Origin: Octopus sinensis | Lineage: Eukaryota | NCBI RefSeq assembly: GCF_006345805.1 | Contig: NC_043012.1 | Coordinates: 20,398,001 to 20,462,000 of the forward strand | Direction: 5' to 3' | DNA length: 64,000 bases | In this document: positions 5,341 through 49,812 of the stretch, one piece after another | Numbering within the stretch: position 1 is the stretch's first letter | How the letters are laid out: every line of letters starts with the position of its first letter | Position numbers and translations under genes: made by a program | The notes under the pieces: generated by a model | What the model was told of the DNA's origin: nothing | The model's input: only the letters and a program-made list of their open reading frames with translations | The model's database searches: none

Positions 5341-6000
5341 ATTATTAAAAAAATACGTGAGCCGGTGCCGTCAAAAATGACGGCTAATTGTAGTCTTTTA
5401 TTTACAAATAAGGTATAAAATAAGGTACATAATAATCACACATACAAACATTCGCATACTTCCCTTGTACAAGCACACACGTACAGACATATACTCAAAA
5501 AGTGTTGAAACGCTGTTTGATTTTTCTTTTAAGCGTTGAACGAGCACCATCCCATTCCCATTGCAAATACACACTCGCACATACACACACACACACACAT
5601 AAACATTCACATAGCTCCTTTTTACATACACACACATATACTCACACAGAATTGAAACGCTGCTCTTTTCACCCCTTCCTTTGTTATTTCTCTATCACCC
5701 TTTCTTTTCTCTATTGCTGTTACTTTCACTCTCTCTGTGTCAAGGTTATTACTCTCACTACTTCTCCTTCAATGAATTCCTATTTTCTCCCCCTTTTCCT
5801 TCAATTATGCTACTCTTTCTCTTACTCCTCCGTAAATCTGGACTAAGTTATATATATATATAAATATCCATATCCATATCCATATACATATATATATATA
5901 TATATATAAAATATTATTCGAGACAAAACCACTATTTTGCAAAACAAACAAGGAAAGACTTAATCAATACATAAATTTTAATAAATAGTCAAAAAAACCG

Positions 6001-6043
6001 CCACTACAATCGTTTCTTGTCTTGATCGACAATCTTCAGGTGG
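6001..6043 (-). ncRNA. type I hammerhead ribozyme (inverted copy)
   Basis: Exact reverse complement of 6090-6132. Confidence 0.8.
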
Positions 6044-6089
6044 ACTCCAATAATTCAGTGTCATAATTTGACACTGAATTATTGGAAGT

Positions 6090-6132
6090 CCACCTGAAGA
6101 TTGTCGATCAAGACAAGAAACGATTGTAGTGG
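6090..6132 (+). ncRNA. type I hammerhead ribozyme
   Basis: Helix I CCAC/GTGG; core CTGAAGA (6094-6100); helix II TTGTC-gatcaa-GACAA; GAAA; helix III AC-gatt-GT; GUA triplet, predicted cleavage after 6128. Confidence 0.8.
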
Positions 6133-6454
6133 CGGTTTTTTTGACTATTTATTAAAATTTATGTATTGATTAAGTCTTTCCTTGTTTGTTTTGCAAAATA
6201 GTGGTTTTGTCTCGAATAATATTTTATAATATTTTACTATAAAATCGATTTAATCCTAAATCTGATTTTTTCCCTGTAAATTTGGATTTATTCCCTAATA
6301 TTTATTATTTATATATATATATATATATATATATATATATATATATATATATATAATATATATATATATATATATATATATATATATGTATATATATGTA
6401 TACAGGCAAATATATAAAAACACTTCACTCATTTCTGTATTAGGAGATACCTAA

Positions 6455-6612
6455 GGCGGCGAACTGGCAGAATCGTTAGCACGCCGGGCAAAACGCATCG
6501 ACGTGTTTCGTCCGTCTTAACGTTCTCAGTTCAAATTCTACCAAGGTCCACTTTACCTTTCATCCTTTCGGGGGTCGATAAATTAAGTACCAGTGAAATA
6601 CTGAGGTCGATG
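6455..6612 (+). mobile_element. SINE family A, 3'-truncated
   Basis: Head, B-box and core CCTTTCATCCTTTCGGGGGTCGATAAATTAAGTACCAG. Confidence 0.85.
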
Positions 6613-6649
6613 GTGGAAGGGTTAGTAGAAGCAAGAGCAGGAGCAGGTT

Positions 6650-6760
6650 AACAAGAAGAAGTAGAAGAAAAAGAAGAAGAAGAAGAAGAAGAAGAAGAAG
6701 AACAACAACAACAACAACAACAACACCAACAACTACAAGAATGATGATGATGATGATGAT
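6650..6760. repeat. compound (GAA)n(CAA)n(GAT)n microsatellite
   Basis: Seen directly. Confidence 0.9.
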
Positions 6761-45490: not shown

Positions 45491-45985
45491 TCTTTCTTTT
45501 TATTTTCTTTTATTCTTTTACTTTTTTCAGTCATTTCACTGCGGCCATGCTGCAGCACGTCATTTTGTCGAGCAAATCGACCAAAACAGAATATGTTACG
45601 AAACAGATTATATAATCCAAATAAGTTTTTATTCTTTATAAGCCTGGTACTTATTCTATCGCCGGTCGTTTTCGCCGAATCGCTAAGTTACATGGACGTA
45701 AACTTACCAGCATTGGTTGTTAAGCTATGTCTGGGGAACAACACAGACACCTATACACACCTATACATATATATATATATATATATATATATATATATAT
45801 ATAATATATATATATATGTATATATACATATACGACGGGCTTCTTCCAGTTTCCCTCTACCATATCCACTCACATGGCTTTAGTCGGCCCGAGGCTATAG
45901 AAGAAGACACTTGCTCAAGGTGCCATGCAGTGAGATGAACTCGAGACCATGTGGTTAGCTAGCAAGCTACTTACTAGGCAGCCAC
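45491..45985 (-). mobile_element. SINE family B
   Basis: Colinear with the reverse complement of 53881-54310; expanded internal TA tract. Confidence 0.85.
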
Positions 45986-46465
45986 GCAAACACGCGCGCA
46001 CACGCACACAGACACACACACACACATATATATATATATATATATATATATATATATATATATACACACACACATACATGCACACAAACACACACGCGTG
46101 CACACAAACACACACACACACACACACACACACACACACACATATATATATATATATATATATATATGTGTGTGTGTGTATACCAATGTGTGTATACCAA
46201 TAACCTATTGCATTTGGAAATGTTTGTGAATTATTTGTTCCTTGCATTTCTTATATTTCTGATACATGCATATTTAGAATTTAGAAGCTCACACAAAATT
46301 TCGTCCGCACACTGAATTAAAAATAAATCGTTTCTAAACCTACTACCTCGGATGGCCTGCATAGGTCATAGTAATTTTAAATTTACCGCCTAAATAATAC
46401 TTATCTTATTTCCCTTCAACTTCGAACTCTATGCTTTGTAATAAACGCTCTAGAGAAACAGCCCT

Positions 46466-47041
46466 CATACCACGCGGAGTTTTTGCTGCTGAGTTGCCAG
46501 CACTTTGATGACGAATTTCGATGGTACTCTCCCCATGTACAAATTCTCAGCTAAAATGGAAGGAACTGATGCTGAACTTATTTCCATTTTACGAACAGTT
46601 TCATGGATTGTTACCCGACGCGTTTCCATGATTATTCGCCGAAACTTCTCGACTGGCTCCTCACTTCGGCCAGTGGATTTCTAGCTTAGATATATCTCGC
46701 TCAATGCTGAGGTTTGTCCTAGTTGAAAGCGCCTGTACCACTCATTGGTCGGGATCTTACCACCGCCAAAGGCCTGCTGAATCTTCTGAGTATCACAATC
46801 TCTTGATAAATCCTGATGTCATATTTCTTCTCAATGTGTTAGGTGAAAACGAAAATCCGACGAGCTCGCACTCACGTCTGTACTATGGGCGCAACAGCCG
46901 GGAACTGACGTAACATTCCGTGGCAAAAGTTTTCACGCATGCGCAGGAAGATTGGCGTCACTTCCCACTCAAGGGTTTTTGTTCAGGCGTCATTAGGTTT
47001 AGCGGGAAACAATAAATCACATACTTTCTGAAAGCACCTCT
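46466..47041 (-). mobile_element. mariner 5' fragment (HTH region)
   Basis: Minus strand QKIQQAFG...EWYRRFQLGQTS...RRVTIHE...ISSASVPSILAENLYMGRVPSKFVIKVL, a mariner N-terminus with a degenerate WVP-like linker. TIR-like TACTTTCTGAAAGCACCTC at the right end. Confidence 0.75.
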
Positions 47042-49356
47042 TACTTGTGGCCAAGAAAAAATATCTCCTGCAATTTGTGTAAAAAATTAAAACAAAATAG
47101 AAAGATTCCTACTCATTTAAATTTCACCAAATCGTCAATATTCTCCAAGGTATAACTTGAGTCTTGAGACGAATTCATTTATCCATGTTTGCTTTGAATA
47201 TTTGCCAAGGAATAAACGTCTCCATTGTTTAATTCCTTTTCTTTTTTCAAATATAATTTTTTTTCTCAAACTGACCAGAAAAATAGAATCATTTTGTAAG
47301 ACAGGTTTTTCCGCTTAATTACACTTGATACTTTTCAGTTTTTAAGACGAAATCATGTTTTACACTGTAAATAACGTACTGTAGTTTTGCAGTGAAATAT
47401 ATCGATACAAAATTTATAACTTGCGGTTGTTTGAAATTCACACAGACAAATAACAACTTTTATGAGATGCTGTATACTTTTCTACATTGATGTAAAGAAA
47501 TAATTGGTAGAGTTCGGAGAAGTTAATTTCACAGTAGCAAATGATTCGCTTCTTGCAAATGATGTAGTTCTTGTTCTTCACACACACACATATAAACACA
47601 CATATAACGAACACACATATAAACACACACATATAAACAAAACAATCAATAATAAATGTGCAAACAAGCAGATGCATGAACGAACAAAAGCAGATACATA
47701 AACACAAACATACATACCGACACACACTAGAACATTTAGACACACACATGTAAATGTCTATATGTATGCATATATATATATAGAGGGTGGTTGTATATAT
47801 ATATATATATATATATATATATTATATATATATATATATATATATTATATATACTATATTATAATACATATATACATATATATATACATATATATACATA
47901 TATATATACATATGCATATATATATAGAGAGAGAGAGTGAGAGAGAGAGAGATTCATATATATACATGTGTGTGCACGTGTATACTGTTTATATATATTC
48001 GTATACAAATACACAACGACATAGACATTTTTACACACACGTGCACATACACACATATATCTTTTGGATATATATGTATGTATGTGTGTGTGTGTGTGTG
48101 TGTGGTGTGTGTTTCACTTCACAAACAAAATTAAAATTACTAAACATATATAGATAAACACACATATAATTTTTTTTTAATCTGTTTCAAACACACACAC
48201 GCACACACATATGCACATACTATTTATATATAATATATACGTATACATATGCACATTAATATTAACATTTAGAAGCACGGGTGCGTGTGCGCGTGCATGT
48301 ATGCTTTTGTGTGTGTATATTTAACATGAAATATGCAATTATATACTGCTCTCTTGTCTGTGTAGATACATAATTTGAAACCTGTTTGGGCATAATTATT
48401 CTGTTAAGCCTCTTTGGTTTATATATATTTTTAGTCAAGATTGTTTTAAGGTTAATAATTCTGACAAGCTATCCAATTATATTTTATTTATTACTTCGAA
48501 ACTTCAAATCTGTTCGGTCCGTCATGCGTGCGTGATTGGTTAGGACGTTATTATAAGACATATTTTTGTGAAGCAATTCGAGAAAACTTAAAATTTTGAA
48601 TAGAAAATGTATACATTCGCAATAGACGGAAAATGTAGAGATGCTAATAAAAATCCACTCATTATATCGGATTGAAAAAAAGAATTTCAGTTTATATAAC
48701 CATTTCAATTTAAACAAATTAATGTAAGGATTCGAAATAAGTTCAACGTATATATATGTGTGTGTGTGCGTGCGTGCGTATACATATGTACATACACACA
48801 CACACATGCGCGCATATATATATATATATATATATATATATATATATATATATATATATATATATATATATATATATATATATATATATATGCTATTATG
48901 CTAAAGTGTCGTAAGTCGAAAATGTTGCTTTTTCAGAAAACGAAAAGATAATTTTACCATTCCATAGCAAAACCGTTGTACTACACTTTGACAATCTTTG
49001 AGACCGTAGCATTTGAGCAGCTGGAGATACGATAACTTGACCGAAAGTACCAGCTATTGCAAGTAAATATAAACATAGTAAACAACACAGTTGGCCCAAT
49101 TGGGACGTACAATAGTTTAATATAATGGCAAGGATATATAATATATTATATATATATATTATAATATATATATATATATATATATATATATATATATATA
49201 TATATATATATATATATATAAGTTCAGCAACAATTTAGATTCAAATGAATATGGTACTTAATTTAGATGCACCAGAATTTTGATGGTGGTACCCATAAAA
49301 AAAATGCGGGGTGATTATAATCAAAGAATAAAAAGCAACAAGATTGAATCCGGTAC

Positions 49357-49444
49357 TTTAGTACAATTGTTTCATACTACAACATTTTATTAAAAGCTGT
49401 AAATATTACAGCAGATTTAAGATGCTGAGTAATCTTCAGCTAAA
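49357..49444 (-). ncRNA. type I hammerhead ribozyme (inverted copy)
   Basis: Reverse complement of the 49.7-kb motif; helix I TTTAG/CTAAA. Confidence 0.75.
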
Positions 49445-49657
49445 TTTTATATAGGTTTTCCAATAATATAAAGTTTTCAAATCAATTAATAACATCTTAG
49501 GGAAGGTAAATATACAGATAAAGATGTAGACATGAGTTGTAACCGAGGTTTTGGTCAGTTAGCATCTGAACTACACGACCTCATGTTCCTAACATTCATA
49601 TCTACATCTTTATCTGTATATTTACCTTCCCTAAGATGTTATTAGTTCATTTGATAA

Positions 49658-49749
49658 AATTTAGCTGAAGATTACTCAGCATCTTAAATCTGCTGTAATA
49701 TTTACAGCTTTTAATAAAATGTTGTAGTATGAAACAATTGTACTAAATT
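49658..49749 (+). ncRNA. type I hammerhead ribozyme with extended helix II
   Basis: Helix I AATTTAG/CTAAATT; CTGAAGA (49665-49671); helix II TACT/AGTA, CAGCAT/ATGTTG and GCTGTAA/TTACAGC; GAAA (49731-49734); palindromic ACAATTGT; GUA, predicted cleavage after 49742. The first helix II pair is U-U. Confidence 0.8.
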
Positions 49750-49812
49750 ACCGGATCTATTCTTGTTGCTTATTATTCTTTCTATATATATATATATATA
49801 TATATATATATA

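Follow-up and report, generated by a model that had tools for sequence, protein, structure and literature searches.

Two fold-backs in the window, the 64-kb stretch of octopus DNA analysed here, are each made of an inverted pair of arms lying between (TA)n tracts, and we assign them, with a probability of about 0.85, to pseudo-LTR-sized insertions of two families of Penelope-like elements (PLEs), probably of the Hydra or Neptune type that targets TA and bears hammerheads. The two loci (L1, family A, and L2, family B) are probably short terminal remnants of such elements, placed head to head in TA repeats and with a putative self-cleaving RNA motif on each arm. The preliminary description had recognised Penelope-type insertions that target TA, bear hammerheads and include an inverted pseudo-LTR, an identification upheld by the layout and by four strict hammerheads.

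The L1 fold-back (5905-6310) is bordered by a (TA)n-rich target tract on the left (5849-5908) and a (TA)n target tract on the right (6310-6387). The family A unit, pseudo-LTR-like and about 245 nt long with its tail, occupies 6066-6309 on the plus strand; its last 81 nt (6229-6309) form a one-sided tail that is absent from the second arm. This inverted, tail-less arm (5910-6063, minus strand) stops at the short 3' end, which corresponds to position 6228, and precedes a 5-nt turn (6064-6068). The arms (5910-6063 and 6069-6223) agree at all 154 aligned bases and differ by a single 1-nt gap. A minimal type I hammerhead is found at 6090-6132 on the plus strand (N17 at 6128) and its mirror at 6001-6043 on the minus strand (N17 at 6005). 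The plus-strand copy contains a helix I of 4 bp, CUGAAGA, a helix II of 5 bp, GAAA and a GUA site, and its helix III is a self-complementary stretch of 8 nt.

The L2 fold-back (49221-49783) is likewise an inverted pair between (TA)n tracts, at 49147-49220 for the long, tailed end and at 49783-49812 for the short end. Its 95-nt one-sided tail (49221-49315, minus strand) continues from an arm delimited by alignment (49316-49545, minus strand), followed by a degenerate palindromic turn (49546-49588) and the inverted tail-less arm (49589-49783, plus strand). Aligned to each other, the arms match at 182 of 195 bases, and the alignment contains 35 gap positions. The hammerhead of the tailed arm, at 49357-49444 on the minus strand (N17 at 49362), has a helix II with U.U at its base and a long insert, a GUA site and a palindromic helix III of 8 nt; its mirror lies at 49658-49749 (N17 at 49742). 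The layout initially ascribed to both loci is thus confirmed for L1 and, at L2, for the minus strand only, where the tail is located; the plus-strand hammerhead quoted earlier for L2 belongs to the tail-less arm, not to the tailed one.

A descriptor scan and an Rfam search had been suggested as checks on the ribozymes. A strict type I descriptor applied to both strands of the 64 kb returned four matches, two each at L1 and L2, versus none in 100 block dinucleotide shuffles, and both hammerheads combine the CUGANGA, GAAA and NUH core with three helices. Rfam gave no support: targeted scans at L1, L2 and a further motif at 33.6 kb returned no hammerhead or other ribozyme, and no hammerhead appears among the 150 of 327 window-wide matches listed, which are mostly microsatellite microRNA matches. 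The L1 and L2 hammerheads lie 216 and 219 nt, respectively, from the long 3' ends. All seven element ends examined reach (TA)n, while a comparable (TA)n run starts within the next 5 nt at only 1.9% of plus-strand positions.

Aligned with each other, L1 and L2 give a z of about 0, and 93 of 200 shuffles score equally well. Because the two are not detectably homologous, the differences between their helices are not covariation, and the earlier argument that the helices differ yet still pair fails; L1 and L2 are two families sharing a motif. Furthermore, alignment divides the elements of the window into three or more mutually unrelated sequence families, where a single one had been claimed.

Other loci complete this picture. 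A fold-back without a hammerhead is present at 32118-32910, with arms (32118-32416 and 32617-32910) identical at 281 of 290 positions; they meet at a (TA)n tract of about 195 nt (32417-32611) and each contains an internal hairpin of about 150 nt. Next to it, a diverged family A 3' fragment (33002-33190, plus strand) lacks the hammerhead and ends in (TA)n; it matches L1 at 132 of 163 aligned bases, with 36 gap positions (z = 8, 0/200 shuffles). The whole of 32111-33190 had been taken for a ribozyme locus of the same layout, a view that does not hold: no CUGANGA/GAAA core was detected there, even in a relaxed scan, and Rfam found no ribozyme in 32620-33190. To judge from the letters, this region looks composite, because the arms meet at (TA)n and the last 190 nt or so are a 3' piece of the L1 family, and 32118-32910 probably falls outside the ribozyme-bearing group. 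A TA-centred fold-back without a hammerhead is also seen at 27453-27642.

These two hammerhead-free, TA-centred structures favour a different reading of L1 and L2, as fold-backs formed at the DNA level (MITE-like, or inverted duplications seeded by self-complementary TA tracts) in which the hammerhead cores are chance matches or passengers. Such an origin probably fits the 32-kb locus; for L1 and L2 we consider it hardly credible, given the absence of strict hammerheads from the shuffles, the same core at nearly the same distance from the long 3' end in two unrelated families, and the existence of non-inverted family A 3' fragments. One more such fragment, overlooked earlier, lies at 42724-42893 (plus strand); it is truncated downstream of the hammerhead, runs into (TA)n and is identical to L1 at 140 of 159 positions (z = 21.6). 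The three family A copies of the window therefore have a common 3' end that in each case runs into (TA)n, and they differ in their 5' extents, a pattern of 5' truncation with a constant 3' end that is known from PLEs. Moreover, in public contigs the summed depth left of 6060 drops about 1000-fold, and because the depth at the turn is that far below that of the arm, the L1 junction has not been amplified as a unit.

The third family is represented by a single unit at 33410-33690 (minus strand) that ends in (TA)n at 33409. Its hammerhead-like motif, at about 33600-33655 on the same strand, is non-canonical. It had been presented as a further variant, and its core and helix II are indeed in place, but helices I and III are mismatched in a type I reading and the unit has no inverted arm; the (TA)n end lies 235 nt downstream of the motif. 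Read as type III, with a long closing stem, G.U pairs and a UUC site, it has four unpaired bases at the place of helix I.

Several PLE traits are found at both L1 and L2: an inverted, 5'-truncated copy adjoining the 5' end, a tail confined to one end, which gives two 3' ends (81 nt apart at L1 and 95 nt at L2), and a type I hammerhead that the pseudo-LTR carries close to its 3' end. The 32-kb fold-back lacks the hammerhead. No reverse transcriptase (RT) or GIY-YIG domain was detected with Pfam in 150 of the 223 low-repeat frames with a length of 55 aa or more (the other 73 being shorter than these 150), and the L1 and L2 inserts are too short to contain an ORF for either. The only Pfam match above the cut-off among these 150 frames is an aldolase, a remnant closest to proteins of Octopus vulgaris and O. 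sinensis.

An inverted 5'-truncated copy and a one-sided tail are general traits of PLEs, and Hydra PLEs combine (TA)n targets with hammerheads; Penelope-13_HM has one on each strand, and Hydra-1_Obim is a TA-targeting Hydra-clade PLE of Octopus bimaculoides (Craig 2021, PMC8557442). Families A and B resemble the Hydra clade in their (TA)n insertion, in a sense hammerhead near the 3' end with a GUA site and an AC...GT helix III (26 of 26 rows of the Hydra hammerhead table), and in the inverted 5'-truncated copy that places hammerheads on both strands; L2 additionally shares an extra base after CUGANGA and a helix II that has U.U at its base (14 of 26 rows). They differ in a helix III of 8 nt instead of the 9-10 nt of that table, in the long helix II insert of L2 and in the lack of a visible ORF at L1 or L2, and the hammerhead and 3' end of Hydra-1_Obim are unlike those of families A and B. 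In the window, the core motif of Hydra-1_Obim has one match at 3 mismatches, and 26 of 100 shuffles do as well; a degenerate tail motif gave three matches, equalled by 5 of 100 shuffles. Insertion into (TA)n is not diagnostic of the Hydra clade, as Naiad elements do likewise and Neptune elements use microsatellites generally. The Octopus Naiads (Naiad_Obim, Naiad_Ovul, Naiad_Omin) share the (TA)n targets, inverted copies, tail and host genus with our loci, but are without canonical hammerheads and have 3' ends that, compared by eye, are unlike those of L1 and L2.

Pairs of minimal hammerheads on opposite strands, 100-700 bp apart, have been described as probable truncated PLEs (Cervera and de la Pena 2014, PMC4209133). 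The predicted L1 and L2 ribozymes match the minimal PLE type in their short helix I, in a palindromic helix III suited to dimers, in occurring both solitary and as opposite-strand pairs, and in their high variability within one genome; however, they are without the G10.1-C11.1 pair, L1 having U-A and L2 U.U. In Adineta, head-to-head inverted pLTRs with palindromic junctions occur, as do solo pLTRs, and in vitro the PLE tail length equals the spacing of two internal RT start sites, both DNA strands being nicked and extended (Arkhipova 2013, PMC3846280; Frangieh 2024, PMC11167929). Such EN+ Penelope elements resemble our loci in the head-to-head inverted pLTR, the palindromic junction, the pLTR-sized unit, the tail on one side and the AT-rich targets, while the 81-95 nt tails of L1 and L2 exceed the roughly 30-40 nt usually cited and the inserts consist of two arms and nothing else. 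The layout, tail, TA targeting and dual hammerheads are thus already published for PLEs (PMC8557442; PMC4209133), which lowers the novelty first claimed; what may be new is families A and B as octopus families. They were not met in the text and supplement of the O. vulgaris repeat paper, though curated libraries may contain them, nor were four window motifs and one RNA-letter motif found in the supplement of Craig 2021, where FASTA line breaks could mask a match. In the O. vulgaris genome, PLEs account for 6.83% and 190 families.

Public contigs show family A to be a repeat of very high abundance, in which two 3' ends recur and both continue into (TA)n. On 283 nt of family A, 12,041 contigs of run X1 and 2,115 of run X3 were placed; the short end at 6228 continues into TATATA/(TA)n in 37 contigs of X1, and in X1, X3 and X16 loose ends beyond 6217 lead into TA-rich letters. 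No DNA variant is listed within the hammerhead (6090-6132) at a cut-off of 2%. Two metagenome pattern scans gave no matches.

At the 5' side, three observations hint at a fixed start of family A near 6066-6069. The L1 turn occupies 6064-6068; two contigs of run X13 have a (TA)n run immediately before 6066, and one has the reverse-complemented tail end (6292-6306, 0 mismatches) immediately before 6068; and no well-supported common upstream extension was found at 6066 among the best 24 of 148 loose ends. These would suit a specialised unit of about 245 nt that has no ORF, starts about 24 nt upstream of helix I and is mobilised in trans by a PLE protein, the non-autonomous reading of the preliminary description; PLE-derived non-autonomous precedents are published (bioRxiv 10.64898/2026.07.22.740005); insertion would proceed as in our preferred reading, the template alone being different. 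We regard this variant as possible but doubtful. A fixed 5' end would be equally expected from short cDNAs reaching the 5' end of a pLTR-initiated PLE transcript, the X13 support amounts to three contigs of one run, and further loose ends at 6081 and 6089 are not consistent across runs. The contigs are also short (longest among those listed, 152 nt), and edge effects reduce the depth near 6066.

The type I hammerhead, the ~245-nt unit and the low GC content also fit descriptions of non-LTR retrozymes (PMC7229834), which would form circular RNA through two hammerhead cuts, and the ORF-less unit of a few hundred bases and the link to PLEs are shared with animal non-LTR retrozymes (PMC7229834; bioRxiv 10.64898/2026.07.22.740005). 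Retrozymes are head-to-tail tandems with canonical ribozymes, whereas the arms of L1 and L2 are inverted and their ribozymes minimal; because these lie on opposite strands, no transcript carries two sense hammerheads. Family A occurs in the window only as an inverted pair and single fragments, never in tandem, and the contig lay-out holds no joint from 3' end to start and a short backward joint (6242 to 6208) in a single X1 contig. A retrozyme origin is therefore very improbable.

Returning to PLE insertion, a PLE reverse transcriptase/GIY-YIG protein would nick the (TA)n tract, and would prime reverse transcription from one or the other of two positions inside the template RNA, which are 81 nt apart for L1 and 95 nt for L2, yielding a long tailed and a short tail-less 3' end. 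The 5' ends of the arms would become connected, either through self-priming or because cDNAs begun on each of the nicked strands are joined to one another, and the outward-pointing ribozymes would be a by-product of this head-to-head geometry.

Folding predictions suggest how these ribozymes may behave. Self-pairing of the helix III octamers is predicted at -5.8 and -6.4 kcal/mol, and the MFE structure of two L1 copies is a double hammerhead (-21.4 kcal/mol), which is not the case for L2. As a monomer, the hammerhead fold is less stable than the MFE structure by 1.1 kcal/mol at L1 and by 1.8 kcal/mol at L2, and single-strand MFEs are no better than those of shuffles (z of 0.41 for L1; -1.55 and -1.30 for L2), as is expected of dimer-type motifs. 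The hammerhead is predicted to require dimerisation for activity, its self-complementary helix III pairing two units of a tandem precursor RNA. Folds of the whole fold-backs sequester the ribozyme, and a read-through transcript is predicted to trap it in a duplex of about 150 bp. With one sense hammerhead per strand and this predicted trapping, L1 and L2 would likely be dead ends with no catalytic activity, and would supply double-stranded RNA to A-to-I editing.

For annotation, the two families provide probable octopus PLEs with exactly mapped double 3' ends (6228/6309 and 49316/49221), and an abundant young family could reveal how PLE inversions form, by self-priming or by joining two cDNAs. 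An editing-like cluster was seen within the family A arm in one probable RNA run; candidate sites with a 5' G are scarce in the arm, which makes the absence of a 5' G at edited sites uninformative. Tentatively, and against our own expectation, family A might be an undescribed hammerhead unit of about 245 nt, lacking an ORF and always starting at one point, massively copied by a Penelope-like enzyme in several octopus species as head-to-head pairs in TA repeats, whose read-through would give perfect double-stranded RNA feeding the A-to-I hyper-editing that octopus reportedly shows at an exceptional level. Long double-stranded RNA has been noted in octopus (PMC5625713), and if the editing hint is true, PLE fold-backs would be a concrete source of it.

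The window was searched on both strands with a type I hammerhead descriptor (CUGANGA, a helix II of at least 4 bp, GAAA, a short helix III, NUH and a helix I of at least 4 bp), which returned four matches, compared with none in 100 block-wise dinucleotide shuffles. Two lie in the fold-back at 5905-6310, termed L1 (6090-6132 on the plus strand and 6043-6001 on the minus strand), and two in the fold-back at 49221-49783, termed L2 (49658-49749, plus; 49444-49357, minus); they bear out the cut sites that the preliminary description had predicted at 6128/6129 and 49742/49743. The helix III octamers are predicted to self-pair, and two L1 copies are predicted to fold as a double hammerhead (-21.4 kcal/mol), while the fold predicted for two L2 copies is not a double hammerhead. 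In the folds predicted for transcripts of a whole fold-back, no part of the ribozyme is left unpaired.

L1 is a nearly perfect fold-back, its arms (5910-6063, minus; 6069-6223, plus) being identical at 154 of 154 aligned bases with one gap, and it comprises a turn of 5 nt and an 81-nt tail present on the right side only. L2 follows the same plan, as had been proposed, but sits on the minus strand, with a 95-nt tail at 49221-49315, a degenerate palindrome as turn, and arms identical at 182 of 195 aligned bases with 35 gap positions. The L2 arms (49316-49545 and 49589-49783) differ mainly close to the turn and at the outer end, and they match throughout a stretch of about 90 nt that includes the hammerhead, which suggests either conversion between the arms or two slightly different templates. 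Each of the seven element ends examined adjoins a (TA)n tract. Homology between L1 and L2 is not detectable, 93 of 200 shuffles scoring equally well; they thus represent two families, A and B, that share a motif, and the helices, which differ yet pair and had been read as structure conserved without sequence, are no case of covariation. An additional 3' fragment of family A is found at 42724-42893 (140/159 identical). At about 6276 and 33153, GTAAGT, a sequence resembling a 5' splice donor, is frequent in the tail of family A (33-kb copy and loose contig ends), L1 and the 42.8-kb copy being one base off each. An intron can occur in the pseudo-LTRs of Penelope-like elements (PLEs).

Membership of the same group had also been claimed for 32111-33190, a claim that is not upheld. 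A hammerhead core was looked for in the whole of 32111-33190, and an Rfam ribozyme in 32620-33190, and neither was found; the arms of its fold-back (32118-32910) flank a (TA)n tract and each holds its own hairpin of about 150 nt (32162-32313 and 32719-32873, fold z -12.5), while 33002-33190 is a diverged 3' piece of family A (z=8). The most plausible reading of this locus is an inverted duplication centred on TA, beside a separate insertion. A (TA)n-centred fold-back of similar plan, with 86% identity and devoid of a hammerhead, lies at 27453-27642. The further hammerhead variant described around 33600-33655 (minus) retains the core and helix II, but helices I and III are mismatched and the inverted arm is absent; its unit runs into (TA)n 235 nt downstream of the motif. 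At 33590-33675 (minus), the upstream strand pairs with helix III and the cleavage-site region over about 17 bp, including several G.U pairs, and this predicted pairing could possibly act as a built-in inhibitory stem.

Other features were noted in the window. Inverted repeats of about 330 nt (82%) with a spacer of about 320 nt and no TA flanks are found at 8033-8997 and are MITE-like, and a common dispersed repeat, putatively an octopus SINE, forms inverted pairs at 3444-3641/4889-5087 and 5223-5323/6506-6608. An intron-less, stop-containing fructose-bisphosphate aldolase remnant (43780-44283, minus; broken frame 43931-44149; Pfam E 4.8e-16), closest among the 30 matches listed to Octopus vulgaris and O. 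sinensis proteins (66-71% identity), is likely a processed pseudogene. On the strength of this similarity, the window very probably comes from an octopus. Two fragments at 37011-37341 (plus) match the 3' part of eukaryotic 18S rRNA under the gathering score (Rfam E 7e-7 and 6e-5). The frames 50357-50665 and 16269-16580, without a Pfam match, contain motifs that resemble those of Tc1/mariner transposase remnants.

Words of L1 are present in 20 of the 24 public sequencing runs listed (12 studies), and at least half of them in 12 runs under seven coded organism labels, four of which were compared at the contig level with the L1 segment 6040-6322. This segment is matched by 12,041 contigs in run X1 and 2,115 in run X3, and family A is therefore a very abundant repeat, depth not being equivalent to copy number. 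Summed contig depth is about 10^5 to 10^6 over 6060-6322 against 78-1,042 at 6040-6059, a collapse which indicates that the exact L1 turn is not amplified as a unit. In X1, 37 contigs have loose TATATA ends behind 6228, showing that copies other than L1 also possess the tail-less end. Among the 24 of 148 loose ends listed, (TA)n directly precedes 6066 in two contigs of run X13 and the reverse complement of the tail end precedes 6068 in one; these three contigs hint at a fixed 5' start of family A with variable inverted partners.

In X13, which is only presumed to be RNA and whose sample differs from that of X3, 15 T>C sites were found; 13 of these stay under 0.05% in X1 as well as in X3, and every one of the 13 falls within the arm (6127-6199). 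An A>G at 6197 is common to X13 and run X16 and absent from X1 and X3. This pattern resembles A-to-I hyper-editing of double-stranded RNA. Most of these sites come from one contig, which could instead be a diverged copy. On the boldest reading, which we consider rather doubtful, family A would be a dedicated non-autonomous unit feeding octopus double-stranded RNA editing.

The identification as Penelope-type holds up; the inverted copy, one-sided tail, (TA)n and hammerheads match published PLE architecture. An adjacent inverted 5'-truncated copy and a one-sided tail are general PLE traits, and Hydra PLEs target (TA)n and carry hammerheads (Craig 2021, PMC8557442); the same source lists Hydra-1_Obim from O. 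bimaculoides, (TA)n-targeting Naiads from three Octopus species, and Penelope-13_HM with hammerheads on both strands. The U.U of L2 is found in 14 of 26 Hydra hammerhead rows, and helix III has AC...GT in all 26 but measures 9-10 nt, against 8 nt in L1 and L2 (PMC8557442). Opposite-strand hammerhead pairs 100-700 bp apart were reported earlier (Cervera 2014, PMC4209133). The L1 and L2 families were not found in literature searches on PLEs, octopus repeats and octopus or cephalopod hammerheads, nor the window motifs by motif search in the PMC8557442 and PMC13282606 supplements; they may be contained in Dfam, Repbase, the O. vulgaris repeat library or the bioRxiv supplements.

The anatomy, the two 3' ends, the TA targets and the high abundance are direct observations; how L1 and L2 formed may be pictured from the literature. 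Both strands of AT-rich DNA are nicked by the PLE RT/GIY-YIG protein, which initiates reverse transcription at two internal positions separated by the length of the tail; insertion in vitro did not need hammerhead cleavage (PMC11167929). Self-priming has been named as the source of head-to-head palindromic junctions (PMC3846280). At both loci, such a protein would have nicked an AT-rich target on both strands, reverse transcription would have started at two internal sites a tail length apart, leaving two 3' ends, and self-priming may have created the head-to-head junction. On this view the hammerheads point outward because of the inversion, and with a single sense ribozyme per strand, neither locus is able to excise a circle. 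In O. vulgaris, 190 PLE families, 31 of them recently active, make up 6.83% of the genome (PMC13282606), so several PLE remnants are expected per 64 kb. The feature is real, with an architecture already published, in a lineage known to be rich in PLEs, and L1 and L2 likely function like PLE ends.
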